This document shows, in pieces, positions 20,806 to 29,776 of a stretch of 44,198 nt of DNA (its first letter is position 1; every line of letters begins with the position of its first letter). Under the pieces are notes generated by a model, which worked only from the letters and a program-made list of their open reading frames with translations, made no database searches and was not told where the DNA came from. Position numbers and translations under genes: made by a program. The DNA comes from Escherichia phage vB_EcoS-EE09: sequence record OR756193.1. The stretch is one strand, 5' to 3'.

Positions 20806-20841
20806 TTGCAATCCGCGTATTGGTTGCATATATTGGTTGCA
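20806..20841 (+). promoter_or_regulatory. candidate sigma70-type promoter with tandem ATTGGTTGCA motifs
   Basis: -35-like TTGCAA, 17-nt spacer containing ATTGGTTGCA, -10-like TATATT, then a second ATTGGTTGCA; 17-nt identity ATTGGTTGCACACCAAC with the reverse-strand motif upstream of the gene starting at 31460. Confidence 0.45.
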
Positions 20842-21628
20842 CACCAACAACGAGGACACAAAAAAGAGACTGACTAAAGACATTAAAAATCAGATTCTGG
20901 CTAACATCCTGCGCGACCACGAAATAGCGACAGAAGCAAAATCAATAATGATGGACTCGCGCGACCTGGCGTACGCCATTACGCTGGACTGTATGCCAGA
21001 AGGCATTCGCACGTTCGCCGAGCTACTCGCGCGCATTGAAGCAATCGGCGATGACCCGTCGCAGATGTACGGCGTCTGTGTATACACCAACAAGGCGACG
21101 TATAGTTATAACACCGACCGCCCGAAAGGCATCGGCAGCGTTTACGACGCCACTTTCGAAATCAACGCAGGCGGAAACGTCCGTACCGTGTCATTGAGCG
21201 GAGACGGATACCGATTCCGAGTACATCGCGGATACTGGGAGTATAAATACATGAATAAACTGTCTCCCGATCTCGGCGATATTGTGCCAGGGTATGAGGA
21301 AATTTTGTTAGCGTCAGTGTGCGAAGTCGACGACGACGGGAAAGCACTGCCGATATATCTCCCACGCGGCCGTGTAGACTACCCGGCGGATCATGATTTC
21401 TGTAAGCGCCTTGACCGTAACGATAAGGCCCGCCGCGATTTGCGAGCTAAGTATGACGCGTTCAAACTAACTGTTACCGGTGTGCTGGATATGCACAATA
21501 CCGATAAGAAGCTGATCAAGGAGTGGCCTGAAGTGGAACAGTTCATTCCTTACCCGGACAAGCCGAAGTCCACGGCGGTGGCGCTGGACGTTAAGACGTT
21601 AAACGAGATTTGCGGTATTCCGCGCTAA
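20837..21628 (+). CDS. hypothetical protein (up to 263 aa) on the opposite strand inside the head module
   Basis: ORF track; start uncertain (track start is a TTG inside the promoter motif; first in-frame ATG near 20947); own promoter-like region upstream and terminator downstream; no motif recognised. Confidence 0.55.
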   Translation: MHTNNEDTKKRLTKDIKNQILANILRDHEIATEAKSIMMDSRDLAYAITLDCMPEGIRTFAELLARIEAIGDDPSQMYGVCVYTNKATYSYNTDRPKGIGSVYDATFEINAGGNVRTVSLSGDGYRFRVHRGYWEYKYMNKLSPDLGDIVPGYEEILLASVCEVDDDGKALPIYLPRGRVDYPADHDFCKRLDRNDKARRDLRAKYDAFKLTVTGVLDMHNTDKKLIKEWPEVEQFIPYPDKPKSTAVALDVKTLNEICGIPR

Positions 21629-21630
21629 CG

Positions 21631-21655
21631 AAAAGGGGGCCATCACGGCCCCCGA
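21631..21655. terminator. bidirectional terminator
   Basis: GGGGGCC-atcac-GGCCCCC hairpin with an A-run upstream and T-runs on both strands; overlaps the last codons of the o-spanin gene. Confidence 0.7.
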
Positions 21656-21873
21656 ATTATTTTCTGCAACTCCAGCACTTGCGCCCTTAGCTTAGCCCCG
21701 CATTCCATATTTTTAACATCAACCAGCAAATCTTCGTCTGGATCTGCCGAGGCATTCTCAAAGGTGCAAGGAGGTCTATAGACCGACTCGGTTAGCGGCG
21801 TCGATGGCACGTTGCTTGATCCGCACGCGCTCATCATCAAAACTGCAATCAGGACGGTTAGGACGCGTAACAT
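21643..21873 (-). CDS. o-spanin (Rz1-like outer membrane lipoprotein)
   Basis: RBS AAGAGG; signal peptide with lipobox-like MMSAC, Pro-rich mature part; overlaps the i-spanin gene in another frame. Confidence 0.65.
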   Translation of the reverse strand: MLRVLTVLIAVLMMSACGSSNVPSTPLTESVYRPPCTFENASADPDEDLLVDVKNMECGAKLRAQVLELQKIIRGP

Positions 21874-22084
21874 ATTTTACAACCTCTTTCGTGATGGTCC
21901 TGTATTCCACGTCGCGGGCCTGTTCTGCCTGCACGACCCCCTCGACAACCTTAGTTTGCTGCCGTTGGGCTTTCGCTTGCGCTTCTTGCGCCGCTCTCGC
22001 CTCAACGCCAGTGCGGTAGGAATCACCCTGCCAGAATCCAACCGCCAGACCTATTACCAACCCAATCGCTGCATACTTAATCAC
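21776..22084 (-). CDS. i-spanin (Rz-like inner membrane protein)
   Basis: N-terminal transmembrane segment (IKYAAIGLVIGLAVGFW) followed by a charged, Gln/Ala-rich periplasmic part; track start is TTG, GTG at 22084 with RBS AGGGGG preferred. Confidence 0.6.
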   Translation of the reverse strand: MIKYAAIGLVIGLAVGFWQGDSYRTGVEARAAQEAQAKAQRQQTKVVEGVVQAEQARDVEYRTITKEVVKYVTRPNRPDCSFDDERVRIKQRAIDAANRVGL

Positions 22085-23180
22085 GCCATAGCCCCCTGTT
22101 TTTAAGCTGCGCAATAGTCATTAGTTCGCCCGTATCGGTGAACATCTTCGGCACTTTCACGCCTCGCATAATCTGGTCTGCGCGCTGCACTCCATATAAT
22201 TCCTCCAGAATATGGCGCGGCTGGCGCTGCACCCAGGAGAAGAAATCAGTCTGCGCGTCGACCTGCTCACTCAGCAATCTGCCCGCTTCAGCCTTCAGGG
22301 CCGGACGCTTACCACTGGGCCAATCTTCCATGCCCTTAACTTTCCACGTCTCCGTAGAACGGCAGCAATAATGCAGCTTGCCCGGACCAGCGCCATATTG
22401 TGATCCCGCCACCACTTTCCCGCCGCGTTTTCCTTTGGTGTCGGGAGTGACGTCAACAGGATAAAACAAGCGATCGCGTAGCTGGCACATAGGGGAGGTA
22501 TGAGTGTCCAATGTAGCCAACCATTGGCGACCTTCGAGAATATCGTCATTAGCTTTTACCATTAATTCGCGGGCGGTCGCCGCATAGTGGTTGACCGCGG
22601 ACTTAACAACGCTTGAGATTGCCTGCGCACTACGACCGCCAAGCGCGCGCCTCACGTCCGCGATAATTTCCATCGTTGGCTTGCCCTGGATGAATCCGGC
22701 GCGCACCTGATTGCCGATCTGCGTCCTGGTCCACTCGGAAAGTGAATCCGGCCATTGCATCATCGTATTACCCTGGAACGGGTTTTTCATAGCCGTCGCT
22801 GCAATCTGCGCGCCGGTAACAACGCCAACTACTTCAACAGCGGGTACGGCGACCGCGGGCTGGATCGCTGCCGTTAGTGTGTCGGCGAGATAATCAGCCT
22901 CGGTGTCGGCGAACTCCTGAAGGCTCTCCGCCAGCACTTTAAACTCGGCGCGCAGTTCCGTTTTGACGGTCTTGTCGAGTTGCGTTAATAGTGTGGTAAG
23001 TGCCTTGTTGCTCATGGACTTTTTGCCATCAAGTAACTCGGTCAACTTACCCAGTAAAGCGGGCCGGAACTTCTCCCACATAGTCAGCACCCTTCGCGCC
23101 TGGTCATTGCTCAGGCGCTGGGTGAAGATGTGACGGCGAATCATTCGATCCGCCATATATTGATTAATTGTCTTCGCCAT
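22077..23180 (-). CDS. putative head morphogenesis protein (367 aa)
   Basis: Position immediately downstream of portal with overlapping start and stop; size. Confidence 0.55.
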   Translation of the reverse strand: MAKTINQYMADRMIRRHIFTQRLSNDQARRVLTMWEKFRPALLGKLTELLDGKKSMSNKALTTLLTQLDKTVKTELRAEFKVLAESLQEFADTEADYLADTLTAAIQPAVAVPAVEVVGVVTGAQIAATAMKNPFQGNTMMQWPDSLSEWTRTQIGNQVRAGFIQGKPTMEIIADVRRALGGRSAQAISSVVKSAVNHYAATARELMVKANDDILEGRQWLATLDTHTSPMCQLRDRLFYPVDVTPDTKGKRGGKVVAGSQYGAGPGKLHYCCRSTETWKVKGMEDWPSGKRPALKAEAGRLLSEQVDAQTDFFSWVQRQPRHILEELYGVQRADQIMRGVKVPKMFTDTGELMTIAQLKNRGLWRD

Positions 23181-24684
23181 TGTCCGCTACCTTGTCCGGG
23201 TCTTCTTCGGTAGATTCTACCGCATCAGGGGACATTTGAGGCAATGGATTCTGATTTCGCAATTCGTCTTCCACCTGCTCGACGGTTTGCGAGTCGTCGA
23301 TAACGCCCTGCGCCATCATCCACTTGATGAAGTCAGCCAGTCGGACCGTACCAGTCTGCACACCAGACATCATTGCGGTCATAAGCTGCGCATCAACCGT
23401 GATTTCGGTGTAGAACTTGTTCAGCGTTACGCGCTGGTCGGCGGTGTCGCCCGTGAATAGCTGCACGATTTGCAGCGCACGGTTGAAAGCCTTTTCAACG
23501 TTACCGGCGATAAGCGACAGGATACTGTTATCAGTCTGCGCATCGTAGGCCGCCTCGGTTGCCGTCTTAGGTGCGGTCCCCTTCTCAACCAGGGCCGCGC
23601 CCAGTTTAGCCATTTGCAATTCGCGTCGCTCACACAGTGCAACAGACAAGTTGCGCTCCTCGGCCTGGATCAGTTTAGCATCCATGTTCTGGCCCAGGAT
23701 AACGCCCTTAGTCGCACCGAGGGCAATGCCGCCCTTCAGGTTCTTGTCAGCCCATGTTTGAGTCAAGCCCGTCGCAACAAGGGTAGGCTGGCCCACGATG
23801 TGCGCAATCTCGGCGACGTCCGCTTCGGCGTTGTAGTGCTTAATGTTGATGGATGCGATATCTGCCAGCGGAGCGGCGTCTGGCGTCGCGTTGTTGTCCA
23901 CCGCACCACACCAGCAAAACGGAAGTTGTGTCAGCGCATTACCGGCGGCATCCACCAGCGGCACAAGATCGGTGCGGGTGAATCCACGCGGCAAGTCCAT
24001 TTGCACCTCGGACGTGTCCGCGTTATAAAACCAGCGGCGGGCGTGTGCCGCACCGTTAATCATGCGAAGCTCGGTCCATATTGTTACTTCGTGGTTTGCG
24101 AAGTCGTCCGGGTCTTCGGTGCTGATTTCGTCCGTCTCCTTCAGCACGATTAGCGTGTCGACCCCGTGGGTCTGCCGCCAGTTAATGATCTGCTCTGCCG
24201 TATACAGGCGGATAAGCGGGCGGTGTGACGCCATCTCAGCGGCTGTCTGCGGCACTACGTTACCCAGTTCATCAAAGTTAGCCTGGCGGTCGTAGTCCAC
24301 CATAAAGCCTGCGCGGCCCGATTGCAGCACTTCCGACATAGCACCGCGCAGGAGTTGCGGCAGCGGCATACCACTGCCGTCTACGTCGTCAATCAGGTCC
24401 GCCATCGCCCCGGAAAGGTCCAGACTTACCGGTTTAGCAAAGGCAACGCCTAACAGCGCGTTAAGTGTGCGGGCGGTGGCGTTCAGGAATACAGCGCGTT
24501 GCTTGTACGCCTTATACCGCGCCCGTGCTTTCGGGTCAGTATTGTCGCCACTGGCGGGGTGAGGCAGGTACAAGGGGCCGCACGCCTTCACGGCGCGCTC
24601 CCCTGCGACACAATCACGGATCATTTTCCACTCTGGCGCGATGCGCGCATAAAGTGGGTGCTGGTTGTCAACGTTAACGGTCAT
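23164..24684 (-). CDS. portal protein (506 aa)
   Basis: Position immediately downstream of terminase large subunit; size; acidic C-terminus. Confidence 0.8.
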   Translation of the reverse strand: MTVNVDNQHPLYARIAPEWKMIRDCVAGERAVKACGPLYLPHPASGDNTDPKARARYKAYKQRAVFLNATARTLNALLGVAFAKPVSLDLSGAMADLIDDVDGSGMPLPQLLRGAMSEVLQSGRAGFMVDYDRQANFDELGNVVPQTAAEMASHRPLIRLYTAEQIINWRQTHGVDTLIVLKETDEISTEDPDDFANHEVTIWTELRMINGAAHARRWFYNADTSEVQMDLPRGFTRTDLVPLVDAAGNALTQLPFCWCGAVDNNATPDAAPLADIASINIKHYNAEADVAEIAHIVGQPTLVATGLTQTWADKNLKGGIALGATKGVILGQNMDAKLIQAEERNLSVALCERRELQMAKLGAALVEKGTAPKTATEAAYDAQTDNSILSLIAGNVEKAFNRALQIVQLFTGDTADQRVTLNKFYTEITVDAQLMTAMMSGVQTGTVRLADFIKWMMAQGVIDDSQTVEQVEDELRNQNPLPQMSPDAVESTEEDPDKVADNGEDN

Positions 24685-24695
24685 GGTCGTTTTCC

Positions 24696-26081
24696 TTAGT
24701 AGAAGTCTACAGTTGGAACAACGGCGATCGGACGAATCACTGGGAACAGGTGCGCAATTGGATAGCCCGCGGCATCGTTCATGTGGTCCACCCCAGCGGT
24801 TTTATCCGGCTCGCCTTTCTTCAGGTCGTAAACCTGCTGTTCCAGACATTTCGCTAGTGTAGGGCATTTATCCAGGTTGACAAAATACTGGCGCACGCCC
24901 TTCGAGTTGCACATCATCGTATTCATCGCGATCAATCGGTCTTTCACAGGCGGGTTAACGCTGTCGTACTCCACCTCGAAGCCTGCGTCTTCCAGTTGCG
25001 CGATATCTGACGACGATGCGTTGACAGTCTTGCGGGACTTGCCGCTGCTATCCGGGTAAACGACGACCCGACCGGCAGCACAATGATCGGGGTAGCGCTC
25101 CTCGATCGCCTCAATCATAGCCGGGGTGTCAAACAGATCCACAAATTCATCCACTGCGTGTATCTCGTCGCGGAACTCCTTGTTTTCGGTGGTACGCTGC
25201 CGTCTGACGTACACGACCGCCGCCATTTTCGTGACGTTAAAGTCCATACCGATAATCAGCGTGTCTTCCGGTTGTACTTCTTCGGTGCTGGCGTTCTCCT
25301 CGCGATTAAACATCTTGTACACCGCGCCCGACGTAAGGTTAACAAATAGGCCGTTCAGGTACGCGTCGATCAGGTTAGCCGGGTACTGACTGCGCAGCGT
25401 GTCGATAAAGTCTGCCGGTAAATGGTGGTTGTCGGTGGTCTTCGCCCGGATCAAACGTTTCTGGCTATCCTTCTCCACCTCGAAAATTTGATACATTGCC
25501 CGGAAGCCTTCCGGCGTGGATACGATGACAAACTGACGGACCACGCCCGCACGCAGACGACCTAGCAATTTGTGGTATGCCGCCATTGCGACGTCTTGCT
25601 TCGTGGTGTCGAACTCATCGGCAACAATCCACGCGGCGTTAACCCCGATCAGGCGGGTATAGTTCTCCATCGACTCACAGATAACGCGAGTCCATTTGCC
25701 TTTCACCAGAACGCTATAGATCTTGTCCTGCTTGTTGAACTTCCACCGGAAGCCAGCCTCGTCGAAAGCCTTTTCCAATTCCGGGTACATGATCTTAACC
25801 AGGAGTGGAATAGTCGGCTCTGTAACGATGCCATCATGACCAGGGTTCAGGGTTAAAAGCTGGATTACCTTACGGGCTGCGACCCATGACTTGCCGCCGC
25901 CGAAGCCAGAGCACAGGCCGAGGATTTTAGTCTTCGTGTCCCGCAGTAGTTCAACCTGGTGCGGTAGGCAATCAGGCTGGTAAAGACGCACCGCCTGCGC
26001 AACGCGTGTCGGGCGTGGTGGTCTGTTGCGCTTTGCGATCGCGCGTTCCAGTGCGCGGTGTTCTGCCGCATAGTTACGCAT
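24696..26081 (-). CDS. terminase large subunit (461 aa)
   Basis: Walker A-like GFGGGKSW near the N-terminus with acidic motifs downstream; start overlaps the small subunit stop (TAATG). Confidence 0.85.
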   Translation of the reverse strand: MRNYAAEHRALERAIAKRNRPPRPTRVAQAVRLYQPDCLPHQVELLRDTKTKILGLCSGFGGGKSWVAARKVIQLLTLNPGHDGIVTEPTIPLLVKIMYPELEKAFDEAGFRWKFNKQDKIYSVLVKGKWTRVICESMENYTRLIGVNAAWIVADEFDTTKQDVAMAAYHKLLGRLRAGVVRQFVIVSTPEGFRAMYQIFEVEKDSQKRLIRAKTTDNHHLPADFIDTLRSQYPANLIDAYLNGLFVNLTSGAVYKMFNREENASTEEVQPEDTLIIGMDFNVTKMAAVVYVRRQRTTENKEFRDEIHAVDEFVDLFDTPAMIEAIEERYPDHCAAGRVVVYPDSSGKSRKTVNASSSDIAQLEDAGFEVEYDSVNPPVKDRLIAMNTMMCNSKGVRQYFVNLDKCPTLAKCLEQQVYDLKKGEPDKTAGVDHMNDAAGYPIAHLFPVIRPIAVVPTVDFY

Positions 26082-26632
26082 TATTCGCCCTGGCCTTTGC
26101 CGGTAGGTTCCACAACGACGTCGCCGTTATCATCTTCGTCGTCATCCAGCGGAGCATCGTCGCGGACGCCGTGGTTGGCTTTAAGCAGGAACGTAGCGAA
26201 GCCCGCCGCGATGGTAACGCCGCCCGCTTCCATCAGGAAAGTTTTCTGCAACTCCATAGCGTCCGCCATCGCCTCGGCGAACTCCTCATGCGCACGCGCC
26301 CATCGATACAGGCAAGCTACGCCCACGCCGATTTCCGCGGCAAATCGACCGAAGGTTGGCATTTTGTTGCGAGGGATTACCTGCGCAGCGCCCTTGTCGG
26401 AGTAGTTGACCTGCCAGGCGTCGGCGTCGGCAAAATAGCGACGAAGCTGGTCGCAGTAAACAGATCGGTAGTCGGTAGGGCGTCCGCATTTGCCGCCTTT
26501 ACGGCGCTTGCCGTATTCGATCTCGGGTCCGAGATTGGTATGTTCGGTTTGCTCGCCTGGTTTACGGCGCGGGGTTACTGCTACTCGTCCGTCCAGTTTG
26601 GCGCGTCGGCCCTTAACTTTGATTTCTGCCAT
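26081..26632 (-). CDS. putative terminase small subunit (183 aa)
   Basis: ORF track trimmed to the internal ATG (MAEIKVKGRR...); translationally coupled to the large subunit; basic N-terminus. Confidence 0.55.
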   Translation of the reverse strand: MAEIKVKGRRAKLDGRVAVTPRRKPGEQTEHTNLGPEIEYGKRRKGGKCGRPTDYRSVYCDQLRRYFADADAWQVNYSDKGAAQVIPRNKMPTFGRFAAEIGVGVACLYRWARAHEEFAEAMADAMELQKTFLMEAGGVTIAAGFATFLLKANHGVRDDAPLDDDEDDNGDVVVEPTGKGQGE

Positions 26633-26762
26633 GATATAAGCCCTTTTGTGCATATGCGCCGACCATCGGCAACATAGGAGACAGCCCTGCCATCTAAGGG
26701 GGATTATAACAGGCACAAAAAAGCCCACCAAATCGGCAGGCTGGGAGGCTTACGGGTTGCCG

Positions 26763-27905
26763 TTACTTCAACATTTCCGGGCTAATGGTTAAGCGTGCAA
26801 CTTCGCCGTAGTTGGCGCTGTAGGTAATGACGTTGGCACTACGACCTGACATCCATCCGCCACGGCTGGCGTAGGCGTCTTTCGCTGCGAGCGTCCGGTG
26901 CTGTTCAACAATCATGTTGCGGGATTCTACAATCTTCTGGTGGTGCAAGTGGCCTACGTGCGCGTAGCTGTACTCACTGGATCCGAAAGCCTGTCTGAAT
27001 TTAGAAATCATAACCTGCTCGATAGCATCGAATCGCGCTTTGTGCCCGTGGTGGAAGAATAGCGTGGTCTTGCCGTGCTGCACCATTTTGTAGACGTCCG
27101 GGGACGTATCCACATCGACGCGCGGCTCGTTCTCGTACAGAGTATTGAACATCTCAGCCAGCCAAATCATACCCGACTCGTCATGATTTCCCTGGACGAT
27201 TAGCAGTTTTACTTTGTGGTGTTTTTGCAGCGCCAGTTCGACGACGTTGCGCACCATGCGAATCATGTATCGGACCAGTTTCTGGTAGCGGGTGTCGGCG
27301 TCCAGTACGTGACCACTTGCCGGAGTGACAGCGTCGAGGCTATCAAAGTGCGCCATATCACCGAGAATATTAATTACGGCAGTGCCCGCGTCCGGTGCGC
27401 GTGCGAAGGCTTCGACAAACCAGCGGTAAAACAGATCTTCGGCGATTGCCATATCCCAGTCCTCGCCAGTCTCCTCACCCCAGGCCAACATGCCCAGGTG
27501 GAAGTCTGACACGGTGTACAGGTTAAGCAAGTCGAGCGCCTGGATCGGGACTGGCGGGGCTTTCACTGGCGCTGCCGGTGTGATTTCGCTGTTCATACCC
27601 TCGACAACAGCGCGCATGGCTTCAAGCTGGCGCTCCTTGTCCTGCTCAGTGATAACCCACGACATGACCTCTTCGCCATTGCCGCGCACCAGGGCGGATA
27701 CGCGCTTAACGCCAAAGCCATCGGCAACGCGCTTACGGATTACGGCATCGTTACCGTGACCAATCCCTTTCTTCGACAGGCGGGCTTTTCGCATGTAGAC
27801 ATTTCGGAGGGAAAGACCGTATTTCTTCGCAATCTCTTTCGCGGTAGTGCCGGATTGTAATTCAGCAATCAATTGCTCGTCGGTGATTTTAGTTTGCGGG
27901 TGCAT
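26763..27905 (-). CDS. HTH domain fused to a calcineurin-like metallophosphoesterase (380 aa)
   Basis: ORF track trimmed to the ATG with RBS AGGAAGTGG; N-terminal helix-turn-helix-like TAKEIAKKYGLSLRNVYMRKARL; phosphoesterase motifs ILGDMAHF, VQGNHDE, GHLHH. Confidence 0.7.
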   Translation of the reverse strand: MHPQTKITDEQLIAELQSGTTAKEIAKKYGLSLRNVYMRKARLSKKGIGHGNDAVIRKRVADGFGVKRVSALVRGNGEEVMSWVITEQDKERQLEAMRAVVEGMNSEITPAAPVKAPPVPIQALDLLNLYTVSDFHLGMLAWGEETGEDWDMAIAEDLFYRWFVEAFARAPDAGTAVINILGDMAHFDSLDAVTPASGHVLDADTRYQKLVRYMIRMVRNVVELALQKHHKVKLLIVQGNHDESGMIWLAEMFNTLYENEPRVDVDTSPDVYKMVQHGKTTLFFHHGHKARFDAIEQVMISKFRQAFGSSEYSYAHVGHLHHQKIVESRNMIVEQHRTLAAKDAYASRGGWMSGRSANVITYSANYGEVARLTISPEMLK

Positions 27906-27967
27906 ATTAATCCACTTCCTGATTATGGGTCCGAGGACAATATACCACGGTCCCGAGTCAAGCAATA

Positions 27968-27992
27968 AAAAGCCCGGAATTAACCGGGCTTG
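27968..27992 (-). terminator. rho-independent terminator after the Ig-like protein gene
   Basis: AGCCCGG-ttaatt-CCGGGCT hairpin followed by TTTTTATT on the minus strand. Confidence 0.7.
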
Positions 27993-27997
27993 TGGTT

Positions 27998-28411
27998 TTA
28001 TTCTCCTGCTTCCGTTACGGTGAAGATGGCGGACGCCATTGCCCCGCTACCATCGGAGGCCACCCAAAAGATGTGGGCGCTACCTGCCGTTTGGGCTGTG
28101 ATTTCTCCGGTAGTCTGATCGATCGCCGCGCAGGCAGGATTAGACGACACCCACTTCCCTGCCTTGTTAGTCGCGTCTGGTGGCTGGACCGCAACCGAAG
28201 CGGTGGCATTCGCACCAACTGCGGCGGATTCCGGTGTGACAGTTACGGTTGCACTAGTCACCAGCTTACTTTCCGGCGGGCTGGGCAACTTCGCATCGAA
28301 GACCCCCGCATGGCTGATAGTGTCCGCGATGATAGCGCGTGCGCCAGGGTCTTCGGTTTTAGCCAGCGCGGCGAGCGCGTCGGCGTTATGATCAAGAATA
28401 CTTTTTAACAT
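27998..28411 (-). CDS. bacterial Ig-like (Big_2-type) domain protein (137 aa)
   Basis: Beta-rich, Thr/Ala/Val-rich sequence with a W-V-S-S-N-P...A-x-I-D pattern typical of Big_2 folds. Confidence 0.5.
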   Translation of the reverse strand: MLKSILDHNADALAALAKTEDPGARAIIADTISHAGVFDAKLPSPPESKLVTSATVTVTPESAAVGANATASVAVQPPDATNKAGKWVSSNPACAAIDQTTGEITAQTAGSAHIFWVASDGSGAMASAIFTVTEAGE

Positions 28412-28427
28412 ACTGTGTTACCCCGTA

Positions 28428-28919
28428 TTATGCTGCGTTACGTCCGATCTTCTCGGCAACGTCCCACTGCTTACCATCGAATAGCGCCTGCCTGCCGATT
28501 GCTCGACGGACCAGACCCTTAAGCACTTCCCCGCCTTGCTTGCGGAACTGCGGCAGAATAGCACGGACCTTCGCCCAGTCGCCCAGTCGCACCGCATCAT
28601 CGAAATCATTCGCTACGTCATCCGGTACGATCGGACCCGGACCGGCATTGATTACCAGGTCAACCAGCGCGTCGAATTGCGCTTGATTAATGCTCGGATG
28701 TGCGTATTTGTTCACCCAGTCCTCGGCATACGCCACATCGCGCTTGAGTAGCTCCAGCGCTTCCGCACGGGTAATGCTTCGAGGCGGGTTAGTGCCGGTA
28801 TGACCATAACCCCAGGTGTACAGGCCGCGGGCCTGCTCTTTCTTAGTCGCGAAATACGGCACTGGGCTGAAAGTCTCCCATGCTGCCGTAAATCGTAGAC
28901 CGTTGTCACTGAATCGCAT
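28428..28919 (-). CDS. endolysin, phage lysozyme (GH24, P22 gp19-like)
   Basis: Catalytic-region pattern E...Y...T-W-G-Y-G-H-T-G ... N-Q-A-Q-F-D-A-L-V-D-L-V-I-N-A-G; adjacent to holin genes. Confidence 0.8.
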   Translation of the reverse strand: MRFSDNGLRFTAAWETFSPVPYFATKKEQARGLYTWGYGHTGTNPPRSITRAEALELLKRDVAYAEDWVNKYAHPSINQAQFDALVDLVINAGPGPIVPDDVANDFDDAVRLGDWAKVRAILPQFRKQGGEVLKGLVRRAIGRQALFDGKQWDVAEKIGRNAA

Positions 28920-29151
28920 GTTTTACCCCATTCAAAACAGCATTACGCAGCGTGCGCAATGCAAACAGCCAGATTAACGCGGTCCAGGTGGTGTCAGATA
29001 CGTCTCCTGTCTGCAACAATCCGATAACGCAGATCATCGCCGTTAGCAGATATAACACCCGGCCTAAAATGCCATCCTGGACGGACGGCGCATACACGTT
29101 AAACAGGGACGAAGCCCCTATGATAACAAACAACAGGACGGAGATAATCAT
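28906..29151 (-). CDS. holin/antiholin-like small membrane protein (81 aa)
   Basis: Two to three predicted transmembrane segments; start overlaps the upstream stop; directly upstream of the endolysin. Confidence 0.6.
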   Translation of the reverse strand: MIISVLLFVIIGASSLFNVYAPSVQDGILGRVLYLLTAMICVIGLLQTGDVSDTTWTALIWLFALRTLRNAVLNGVKHAIQ

Positions 29152-29438
29152 TTTGCGCCCCCCGGAAGTCGGAACGACTCAATAGTCTCCCTGATCCGGG
29201 CGGCTATTGGCATCCAGAAGATTGCGGTTACGAAGCCCAAACCGGCGACAGTGCGCTCGCCAGATAATCCCGCCCACTCGGCGATAGCTGGCGCACCAAA
29301 TATGGCACACAGGAAGCCAACTACGACATATAAAACGAAGTTCAACGGCCCTTTCGTTGCCTCGCCATGAATGCGTGCGCCTACGAAGCCACCAGCAAGA
29401 CACGCAAGGGCGAATAACCACTCGTTTAGCTTATCCAT
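29148..29438 (-). CDS. holin-like membrane protein (96 aa)
   Basis: Three hydrophobic segments with a charged C-terminus. Confidence 0.6.
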   Translation of the reverse strand: MDKLNEWLFALACLAGGFVGARIHGEATKGPLNFVLYVVVGFLCAIFGAPAIAEWAGLSGERTVAGLGFVTAIFWMPIAARIRETIESFRLPGGAK

Positions 29439-29476: not shown

Positions 29477-29776
29477 TCACGCTTGCATAATTAATCGAAA
29501 ATGGACCACTTGCCGACGCCTTTCCACTCCCACCCTTCCGATCGGACGGCCTCGAACATCCGGCCCCCAATCATATCCCGATACCACAGACCGGGTCGGG
29601 TGCTCCGTGATTCCACGGCGCTTGTATACCTCGAACGTCATGCGGGTAATACTGGCGGCTTCCACGGCAGGCCATACCAGGAATACCCATATTGCTCCCA
29701 GCACTCCCGTAACCAGGCATAACATGCTGGCCATACCAAACCAATAAATCACATCATGAATCATAATCTGCTCCAT
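29477..29776 (-). CDS. small membrane protein (95-99 aa; alternative start at 29764)
   Basis: ORF track; long hydrophobic segment (YWFGMASMLCLVTGVLGAIWVFLVWPAV). Confidence 0.45.
   Translation of the reverse strand: MEQIMIHDVIYWFGMASMLCLVTGVLGAIWVFLVWPAVEAASITRMTFEVYKRRGITEHPTRSVVSGYDWGPDVRGRPIGRVGVERRRQVVHFRLIMQA

Follow-up and report, generated by a model that had tools for sequence, protein, structure and literature searches.

Why the genes predicted to complete host lysis should lie among those for head assembly, at a distance from the holin and endolysin genes, is the question raised by the late region of Escherichia phage vB_EcoS-EE09 (sequence record OR756193.1; the window, i.e. the whole stretch analysed, comprises 44,198 nucleotides, and all positions refer to it). 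A preliminary description of this DNA had reported an Rz-like i-spanin gene overlapped by an Rz1-like lipoprotein o-spanin gene in the head module, and had taken the separation to imply either a different transcriptional timing or a module rearrangement. The window belongs to a Dhillonvirus (HK578-like) E. coli siphophage, sharing 90-94% identity with about 150 GenBank records. The overlapping pair is a genuine two-component spanin at the coordinates first reported, as shown directly by the identity of the genes, their membrane signals, their homologues, synteny and the junction sequences, and the split lysis layout, which is annotated in GenBank, is the normal, previously published and already known order for a large phage group infecting E. 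coli and Salmonella. Very probably, therefore, the two open reading frames encode the Dhillonvirus two-component spanin of the Jersey overlapped family, are the last cistrons of a unit running from terS to the head morphogenesis gene, and owe their position to an ancestral split.

The i-spanin gene (21776..22084, minus strand, as are all the genes discussed below with one exception) encodes 102 amino acids from a GTG at 22084. Ahead of it, with a 7-nt spacer, stands a GGGGG Shine-Dalgarno sequence (22096-22092), which is part of the 3'-terminal stretch of the head morphogenesis gene and is kept in four relatives; the i-spanins of HK578, EP23 and JL1 have been curated with the identical start and ribosome-binding site (Kongari et al. 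2018, PMC6139136), and the TTG at 22114, where the mechanical reading frame begins, has no such site. By hydropathy, this small protein has just one transmembrane segment, at its N-terminus (residues ~1-18; Kyte-Doolittle values of 1.64-1.8 in 19-residue windows over residues 1-19), no hydrophobic segment beyond it, and a predicted periplasmic C-terminal domain, which contains one cysteine, Cys80. A single-sequence AF2 model of low confidence (mean pLDDT 62) places helices at residues 5-72 and 82-99, in agreement with the helix predicted in print for the HK578 i-spanin (about 51% helix, 15% strand; PMC6139136). The protein is 89% identical to that i-spanin, matches PHROG 2536 ('Rz-like spanin') at 3.1e-35 and has homologues in 676 phage records.

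The o-spanin gene (21643..21873; ATG at 21873, stop at 21643, AAAGAGG upstream) encodes 76 amino acids. Given the offset of 211 nt between the two starts (22084-21873), it is read in the +1 frame; it shares 98 nt with the i-spanin gene (21776..21873), where two frames encode, respectively, the C-terminal part of the i-spanin and the signal peptide and linker of the o-spanin, and runs 133 nt past the i-spanin end, an arrangement that falls in the 'overlapped' architecture class (Kongari 2018, PMC6139136). The signal peptide ends in a lipobox, VLIAVLMMSA/CGSS, that satisfies a rule of the PROSITE PS51257 type, with Cys17 as the putative lipidated residue and Gly at +2, i.e. not the Asp that would argue against outer-membrane sorting, and the lipobox cysteine is kept in the o-spanins of K1ind2 (LLTLSAC) and Ent2 (FLLSGC). 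Thus, the transmembrane segment and the lipobox, called by hydropathy and by regular expression, respectively, are both present, in keeping with the criteria for two-component spanins (Summer 2007, Kongari 2018). The mature protein would have 60 residues, among them six prolines (10%) and two cysteines, Cys36 and Cys58, reported as invariant across the Jersey family; together with Cys80 of the i-spanin, these two would provide periplasmic cysteines for intermolecular disulfides. It matches PHROG 5672 (1.2e-25) and PHROG 1267 (1.4e-11), both 'Rz-like spanin', and is 100% identical to a SECphi18 product annotated 'o-spanin'. Homologues of this frame are found at the protein level in 641 phage records, with identity down to 35-45% (in 579 of the 641 the match takes in 80% or more of the query), so that an overlapping lipoprotein frame arising by chance is not an explanation.

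Both proteins resemble members of the Jersey family of overlapped spanins, which comprises those of Jersey, SETP3, K1ind1-3, vB_SenS-Ent1-3, HK578, EP23, JL1, SSL-2009a, SO-1 and EK99P-1 (Kongari et al. 2018, PMC6139136). Besides the HK578 and PHROG matches, the i- and o-spanins match their counterparts in K1ind2 (2e-11 and 1e-16, respectively) and in Ent2 (6e-11 and 6e-13), and they share with the family the overlapped architecture, the two conserved periplasmic cysteines of the o-spanin and, by low-confidence prediction, a two-helix periplasmic domain of the i-spanin. The o-spanin has the length of the Dhillonvirus members listed in the family; the i-spanin is as long as that of SO-1 but shorter than that of HK578 (109 amino acids), a difference at the extreme C-terminus, described as variable in the family (PMC6139136), and otherwise nothing of substance sets them apart.

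The relation to phage lambda calls for a distinction. The pair is of the same functional class as lambda Rz/Rz1 and has the same parts: an inner-membrane protein of type II topology whose periplasmic domain is helical (in EE09, by prediction), and a lipoprotein of the outer membrane, for which the same DNA is read in the +1 frame. However, lambda Rz1 is wholly embedded in Rz, whereas the EE09 o-spanin gene reaches beyond that of the i-spanin; lambda mature Rz1 is a proline-rich peptide of 40 amino acids, shorter than the mature EE09 o-spanin; and Rz/Rz1 close the SRRzRz1 cassette, whereas the EE09 pair sits 6.3 kb away from the other lysis genes. In Pfam (E <= 0.01) and NCBIfam scans no family was matched by either spanin or either holin, all of which are recognized by PHROGs alone. 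The Pfam families of the lambda proteins are Phage_lysis and Rz1, and since neither EE09 protein matches Pfam or NCBIfam, homology to Rz/Rz1 is not demonstrated; the label 'Rz/Rz1-like' is apt for function and architecture and does not extend to membership of any Pfam family at that threshold.

The other lysis genes lie upstream on the same strand. Holin-like gene A (29148..29438; 96 amino acids, three hydrophobic segments; PHROG 2359, holin, 6.2e-32) is followed by holin-like gene B (28906..29151; 81 amino acids, multiple transmembrane segments by hydropathy; PHROG 2508, holin, 1.1e-26) and by an endolysin gene of the phage lysozyme family (28428..28919; PF00959, Phage_lysozyme, 2.7e-20; PHROG 7), whose product is not a SAR endolysin, as hydropathy reveals no N-terminal hydrophobic segment. 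The endolysin stop is 6.3 kb away from the start of the i-spanin gene, so that the spanins do not adjoin the endolysin as in a canonical contiguous holin-endolysin-spanin cassette. This gap is filled by six genes. The lysis unit ends in a gene for a protein with a Big_2 Ig-like domain (27998..28411; PF02368, 2.7e-10; PHROG 215). It is followed by a calcineurin-like phosphoesterase or DNA repair exonuclease-like gene (26763..27965; PHROG 704, 8e-162; Pfam Metallophos matches under the curated cut-off), which in relatives begins at the ATG equivalent to 27905; by the terminase small subunit gene, terS (26081..26632), with a likely start at ATG 26632; by the terminase large subunit gene, terL (24696..26081; from the annotation of relatives and homology); by the portal gene (23164..24684; annotated as portal in TheodorHerzl and homologous to the Ent2 portal); and by an SPP1 gp7-like head morphogenesis gene (22077..23180; PHROG 241, 2.5e-116). 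Neither reading frames nor hydropathy disclosed a second spanin or a u-spanin beside the endolysin, and the Ig-like protein has no transmembrane segment or lipobox. All the coordinates and gene calls of the preliminary description hold against open reading frames and PHROG/Pfam matches, and the layout is as it had been drawn, with the pair closing the packaging and head morphogenesis genes.

At their junction, the stop of the head morphogenesis gene overlaps the GTG start region of the i-spanin gene by 8 nt (GTGATTAA), which suggests translational coupling between the two. On the other side of the pair lies the one gene of opposite orientation, the convergent nmad5 (20837..21628, plus strand; PF18757, 3.7e-54), previously described as an inserted plus-strand gene. 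It occupies a variable cargo slot, the contents of which vary among relatives, and nmad5 has a role in Tmn escape (PMC11846954). Elsewhere in the genome, the SECphi18 annotation points to a small lipoprotein-type exclusion gene, Cor.

Synteny bears out both the identity of the pair and the age of its position, since the same genes are found at the same place in relatives. Among Dhillonvirus records, the genes at this position bear the label i-/o-spanin or spanin in TheodorHerzl, JLBYU37 and SECphi18, and in those that are annotated the i-spanin match always overlaps at least one other gene, mostly named head morphogenesis or capsid. In Guernseyvirinae (Jerseyvirus, Kagunavirus and Serratia Tsm2) the homologous genes are collinear in the order holin, holin, endolysin, terS, terL, portal, head morphogenesis, i-/o-spanin, scaffold and capsid. 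Jerseyvirus Ent2 has collinear homologues of all 10 genes from holin A through scaffold; in Kagunavirus K1ind2 the spanins come after the head morphogenesis gene; and in Serratia Tsm2 homologues of holin B, endolysin, terS, terL, portal, head morphogenesis, both spanins and the major capsid protein stand in the same order. Protein identities between these phages and EE09 are only 25-55%, and there are local differences: in Guernseyvirinae a Hoc-like gene separates the head morphogenesis gene from the spanins, whereas the EE09 i-spanin gene directly overlaps the head morphogenesis stop, and, unlike in EE09, neither a convergent cargo gene nor a terminator follows the spanins. From the collinear homologous order in both groups it follows that the split is ancestral to Dhillonvirus and Guernseyvirinae. 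For phage Schulenberg, also of Guernseyvirinae, the splitting of the lysis genes has been stated explicitly in print (PMC6763661). It was also considered whether a whole lysis cassette had its ancestral site just behind the head morphogenesis gene, where Vibrio phage pYD38-A carries endolysin, holin and spanin; the idea was rejected, because only its endolysin and i-spanin are homologous to the window and no structural gene is detectably so.

Two other explanations of the locus lose most of their ground. That a recent rearrangement or insertion in EE09 moved the spanins out of a contiguous lysis cassette might be argued from the contiguous cassettes in which the same spanin family occurs, those of a lambdoid Klebsiella phage and of Vibrio phage pYD38-A, and from the variable cargo site adjoining the pair; but all the Dhillonvirus records inspected have the spanins in the identical place, as do Jerseyvirus, Kagunavirus and Serratia Tsm2 (25-50% protein identity), and the Dhillonvirus i-spanin matches overlap neighbouring genes as described, so that a recent event is contradicted by the relatives and has next to no probability. 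What survives of the module rearrangement first invoked is an ancient one, possible but not specific to vB_EcoS-EE09, being common to Dhillonvirus and Guernseyvirinae. It is also very improbable that the pair has no part in lysis, the lipoprotein acting, e.g. in superinfection exclusion or receptor blocking and the transmembrane protein as a membrane-associated assembly factor. Such roles would fit its place inside the head module, the presence of another lipoprotein-type exclusion gene (Cor), the lack of a Pfam or NCBIfam match and the fact that no experimental report on any Jersey-family spanin was found in the literature. Nevertheless, a transmembrane protein with an overlapping outer-membrane lipoprotein, conserved periplasmic cysteines and a helical periplasmic domain is the defining signature of spanins, no other candidate stands beside the endolysin, and in the lambdoid Klebsiella phage the homologues of both proteins directly follow the lysozyme in a canonical Q-lysozyme-spanin cassette, which ties the Jersey-type family to lysis.

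How the spanin pair and the holin-endolysin genes may be transcribed can be judged from signals in the DNA, the promoter and terminator calls being consensus matches, with conservation assessed in relatives only 6-10% diverged. A hairpin resembling a bidirectional intrinsic terminator (21635..21653; MFE -17.1 kcal/mol, z -3.1), with the final codons of the o-spanin in its 5' arm, is kept in relatives, among them one that carries another cargo gene, and would end both the spanin transcript and that of the convergent nmad5. A second terminator-like hairpin (27970..27991; MFE -15, z -3.5) closes the holin-endolysin-Ig unit and is followed by an extended -10 motif, TGGTATATT (27947-27939). A third, stable hairpin (29473-29444, minus strand; MFE -24.1 kcal/mol, z -5.9), has a T-tract that runs into the holin A ATG, and another extended -10 motif, TGATATAGT (29479-29471), overlaps its 5' side. 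ARNOLD terminators are annotated in PTXU06 at the equivalents of these three hairpins. In the spacer between the phosphoesterase gene and terS, the fold of a terminator-like hairpin (26722..26742) is weakly supported (z -1.45); just past it lies the promoter-like extended -10 TGTTATAAT (26703..26711), kept in four relatives, which is a candidate promoter of the terS-to-o-spanin unit and would be engulfed by the mechanical terS reading frame from TTG 26731. Of the nine TGnTAnAnT matches on the minus strand, three occupy the three short spacers at 29.5, 27.9 and 26.7 kb, a pattern noticed post hoc, and between 26.7 kb and the spanins there is only one, which is weak and lies within the portal gene; a two-hexamer sigma-70 scan gave no excess of promoters (8 vs 9.8 expected), the search for extended -10 motifs alone yielding a pattern. 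Taken together, the conserved hairpins and extended -10 motifs suggest that the spanins ride on the terS-to-head-morphogenesis transcript, and that the holin-endolysin and spanin genes belong to separate transcription units. No Dhillonvirus transcriptome or timed expression data were found in the literature, and the EE09 proteomics paper does not mention the spanins.

Whether this separation is itself regulatory, with the schedule or dose of the spanins set apart from that of holin and endolysin by a unit bounded by its own terminator and promoter and by coupling to the head gene, is a further question. The hairpins on both sides of the holin-endolysin-Ig unit, each with an extended -10 motif after it, the 8-nt stop/start overlap and the preservation of the layout across two phage groups speak for such a role, but the units are adjacent and co-directional, so that read-through could yield a single late transcript, and in Jerseyvirus Ent2 no terminator lies between the spanins and the scaffold/capsid genes. 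Other phages, too, have spanins unlinked to the endolysin. In T7, genes 18.5/18.7 are flanked by the two terminase genes, a long way from lysozyme 3.5. The T4 genes pseT.3/pseT.2 are not near t or e, and no timing role has been proposed for them (PMC6139136). These embedded (T7) and separated (T4) spanins are precedents for the arrangement, belonging to spanin families and phage types other than those of EE09. On balance, a regulatory purpose is unlikely. A more elaborate form of it, in which the Dhillonvirus late region would consist of successive units of hairpin plus extended -10, the start and ribosome-binding site of holin A would be sequestered in the -24 kcal/mol hairpin, transcripts from TGATATAGT would begin inside the 5' arm of this hairpin, the output of the lysis genes would be set by promoter choice or read-through, and spanin dose would be coupled to the head morphogenesis gene, appears more doubtful still; were it true, the split would not be a neutral relic but a design that uncouples the supply of spanins from the control of holin and endolysin.

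The favoured account follows the established two-component spanin model, from which, and from the DNA itself, we infer for EE09 the topology and the fusion mechanism, as well as the transcription units and the translational coupling. The spanins, the two final cistrons of the terS-terL-portal-head morphogenesis unit ended by the bidirectional terminator, would only have to be synthesized at some point in the late period. The i-spanin would insert its N-terminal helix in the inner membrane and extend its helical domain out into the periplasm; the o-spanin would be secreted, lipidated at Cys17 and, having Gly and not Asp at +2, sorted to the outer membrane; and the C-terminal parts of the two would bind, giving a complex that crosses the periplasm, threaded through the peptidoglycan. 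Triggering of the holins (29438-28906) would let out the soluble lysozyme (28919-28428), and, once the wall is degraded, the freed complexes would fuse the inner and outer membranes, the final step of lysis. As the holin would set the timing, the spanins need only be in place before it triggers; thus, the split does not imply the different timing first proposed, and it is probably tolerated, since spanins stay inert for as long as the wall is in place.

Beyond correct annotation, the importance of the layout is little. In many GenBank records of this phage group (e.g. SECphi18, PTXU06 and Ent2) one or both of the spanin reading frames are still called 'hypothetical protein', or the i-spanin is missed entirely, and papers on therapeutic Dhillonvirus phages often give the lysis genes as holins and lysozyme only. 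The position of the spanins is useful to those who engineer these phages: since the pair overlaps the head gene and shares a terminator with the cargo slot, changes made to the nmad5 slot or to the last part (3' end) of the head gene can harm lysis.

The i-spanin gene (22084-21776, minus strand) begins at a GTG that a 7-nt spacer separates from an upstream GGGGG; no ribosome-binding site precedes TTG 22114, the start of the longer ORF called mechanically. The o-spanin gene (21873-21643, minus strand), preceded by AAAGAGG, is shifted to the +1 frame and overlaps the i-spanin gene by 98 nt. The overlapped pair of the preliminary description, with the o-spanin gene extending over the i-spanin 3' end in another frame, and the coordinates of every gene named there are borne out by the ORF table and by direct reading of the junctions. 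Simple rules, rather than dedicated predictors, find the features expected of such a pair: a single hydrophobic segment in the i-spanin (residues 1-18), and, in the o-spanin, a signal peptide and lipobox (MLRVLTVLIAVLMMSA/CGSS) that satisfy a PROSITE-style rule, the +2 residue being Gly. The i-spanin contains one cysteine, Cys80, and the mature o-spanin (60 aa) two further Cys and 6 Pro. Both proteins match 'Rz-like spanin' families in PHROGs (i-spanin, 3.1e-35; o-spanin, 1.2e-25), but neither is matched in Pfam or NCBIfam scans, and 'Rz/Rz1-like' is, therefore, a functional and architectural label only.

The pair belongs to a described group of overlapped two-component spanins, the 'Jersey' family, which has 27 members, among them those of HK578, EP23, JL1, SSL-2009a, SO-1 and EK99P-1, and is characterized by a two-helix periplasmic domain and two invariant o-spanin cysteines (PMC6139136). 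The ribosome-binding site and start listed in the supplementary table of Kongari et al. are identical to those read here (PMC6139136), and the i-spanin shares 89% identity with the HK578 protein given there. A single-sequence AF2 model (pLDDT 62), weak when taken alone, places helices at residues 5-72 and 82-99, consistent with the published prediction. The i-spanin is found in 676 phage records; tblastn recovers the o-spanin in 641, 579 of which cover at least 80% of the query, with identity down to 35-45%, and the overlapping frame is, on this evidence, no chance ORF. Within Dhillonvirus, o-spanin identity falls to 67% (e.g. phage Ioannina), that of the i-spanin being at least 85% in the sampled rows, so that the o-spanin diverges much more despite the gene overlap; likewise, faster o-spanin divergence was noted by Kongari et al. 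for the lambda Rz family, in which the o-spanin gene lies wholly inside that of the i-spanin (PMC6139136). Experimental work on the Jersey-type family was not found in the literature.

The remaining lysis genes, all on the minus strand, are holin A (29438-29148) and holin B (29151-28906), both in PHROGs holin families, and the endolysin (28919-28428; PHROGs endolysin, Pfam Phage_lysozyme), whose N-terminus is not hydrophobic and which, therefore, should need a canonical holin. The proposed separation of the spanins from these genes by the terminase and portal genes is confirmed: from the endolysin stop to the i-spanin start there are 6.3 kb, occupied by the genes for an Ig-like protein and a phosphoesterase, followed by terS, terL and the portal and head morphogenesis genes. 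The Ig-like product, a Big_2 domain protein of 137 aa (27998-28411, minus strand), is encoded by the final gene of the holin-endolysin unit and could decorate the virion or have another role; its gene is intact here and in PTXU06, is represented by two ORFs in the SECphi18 record and retains only 168 nt in JLBYU37.

Whether the split reflects a module rearrangement, as had been suggested, can be judged from relatives. A 10-kb query around the split cassette matched 158 phage records. Identity is 90-95% in 153, and nearly all the records come from Escherichia phages belonging to Dhillonvirus, a genus of HK578-like siphophages, such as BEK2-2, SECphi18, JLBYU37 and the BASEL phages; the window, at 44.2 kb, is as long as a complete genome in this genus. 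In GenBank, the two genes that immediately follow the minor capsid/head morphogenesis gene of TheodorHerzl are annotated 'i-spanin' and 'o-spanin', and the corresponding ORFs are labelled 'putative spanin' in JLBYU37 and 'o-spanin' in SECphi18. Among the Guernseyvirinae, the Jerseyvirus vB_SenS-Ent2 (Ent2) carries, in order, two holin genes, the endolysin gene, a few small ones, terS, terL, the portal, head morphogenesis and Hoc-like genes, the i-/o-spanin pair, and the scaffold and capsid genes, and BLASTP detects 10 homologous products (both holins, endolysin, terS, terL, portal, head morphogenesis, both spanins and scaffold; 23-57% identity). The spanins likewise follow the head morphogenesis gene in the Kagunavirus K1ind2, whose record, dating from 2010, is already annotated 'putative spanin; overlapping gene', and Serratia phage Tsm2 has homologs of nine window proteins in conserved order. 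Since the spanins occupy the equivalent position in TheodorHerzl, and the gene orders of Ent2, K1ind2 and Tsm2 agree, the comparison identifies the split as the ancestral order of Dhillonvirus and Guernseyvirinae, and a rearrangement in this genome is rejected. Outside this lineage, homologs of both spanins do lie elsewhere: Klebsiella phage 2 LV-2017 has them immediately behind the lysozyme gene of a lambdoid Q-lysozyme-spanin cassette, and in Vibrio phage pYD38-A the endolysin and holin genes are followed by one for a related i-spanin; these positions tie the family to lysis and show that the pair moves as a self-contained module. The pYD38-A location was rejected as a shared ancestral position, its structural genes not being detectably related to those of the window.

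The pair and its split position are, then, confirmed as already described and ordinary for this lineage. The separation was stated in print for phage Schulenberg (PMC6763661), which is among the records matched by the i-spanin, and in the gene numbering of a Dhillonvirus paper from 2025 the holins are 31 and 32, the endolysin is 33 and the spanin is 40. Annotation errors persist in relatives (NC_023608.1, 6200-6478; NC_073071.1, 3441-3749): the Ent2 o-spanin is annotated as 48 aa, the true ORF, with its lipobox, beginning upstream at MKSSNMLSVLAVLSASFLLSGC, and SECphi18 and PTXU06 lack an i-spanin CDS.

Different transcriptional timing had also been proposed. Four hairpins, all kept in four relatives and three of them annotated independently in PTXU06 as ARNOLD terminators, lie at 29473-29444, 27991-27970, 26742-26722 and, with a T-tract, at 21653-21635 (MFE -17.1, z -3.1). 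The last, at the o-spanin stop, also terminates the convergent Nmad5 gene. TGnTAnAnT has nine minus-strand matches in 44 kb, three of which (29479-29471, 27947-27939 and 26711-26703) fall in three short spacers adjoining hairpins; between 26703 and the spanins the sole match is a weak one within the portal gene. An 8-nt overlap joins the i-spanin GTG to the head morphogenesis stop codon (GTGATTAA, from junction reading). Most likely, the genes form three co-directional units, holins-endolysin-Ig-like, phosphoesterase, and terS-terL-portal-head morphogenesis-spanins, the spanins being the putative translationally coupled tail of the third. These signals lend some sequence-level support to separate transcription of the spanins, for which different timing would be a further step; no transcriptome for the genus was found in the literature, and in Jerseyvirus no terminator follows the spanins.

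Two extended -10-like motifs, TGTTATAAT (26711-26703) and TGGTATATT (27947-27939), both on the minus strand, lie just downstream of terminator-like hairpins and precede terS and the phosphoesterase gene, respectively; TGTTATAAT is kept in all four relatives checked, the alignments ending short of TGGTATATT. As TGTTATAAT falls within the mechanical 216-aa TTG ORF, ATG 26632 (183 aa) is argued to be the terS start, and relatives annotate the equivalent one. Immediately 3' of the T-tract of the very stable holin A hairpin (29473-29444; -24.1 kcal/mol, z -5.9) stands the holin A ATG (29438); the 3' arm contains a GGGA Shine-Dalgarno-like element, and the AUG is base-paired in the fold of minimum free energy. 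Because the extended -10-like motif TGATATAGT overlaps the 5' arm, transcripts initiated there would be without the hairpin, and expression of the lysis genes could be controlled in this region (29479-29436, minus strand), whose sequence is unchanged in TheodorHerzl and has 1-2 base differences, one of them in the hairpin loop, in the other three relatives. Directly upstream of the hairpin and holin A, the 99-aa product of 29477-29776 (minus strand; PHROG 2531, a family of unknown function) is predicted to be a membrane protein, perhaps another regulator of lysis, perhaps one with no link to lysis.

On their other side, the spanins adjoin the inserted plus-strand gene, so that their placement between it and the head morphogenesis gene holds; Pfam identifies it as Nmad5 (20837-21628; PF18757, 3.7e-54). 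In Dhillonvirus nmad5, which is toxic to clone, a single Lys-to-Glu change allows escape from the Tmn defence system (PMC11846954). The slot is variable among relatives, holding Nmad5 by itself or accompanied by another gene, or else a 'pol III beta-like' gene of 519 nt, its bidirectional terminator being retained regardless of cargo; Guernseyvirinae have no cargo gene beside the spanins.

The interpretation as a split lysis cassette is, thus, essentially right. By analogy with the established model, the spanins would be kept inactive by the peptidoglycan until lysozyme, released by the holin, removes the wall, whereupon they would fuse both membranes. Unlinked spanins have a textbook precedent in T4 (PMC6139136) and, because they would be inert until the wall is gone, their synthesis would be needed only in the late period, linkage to the holins being unnecessary.
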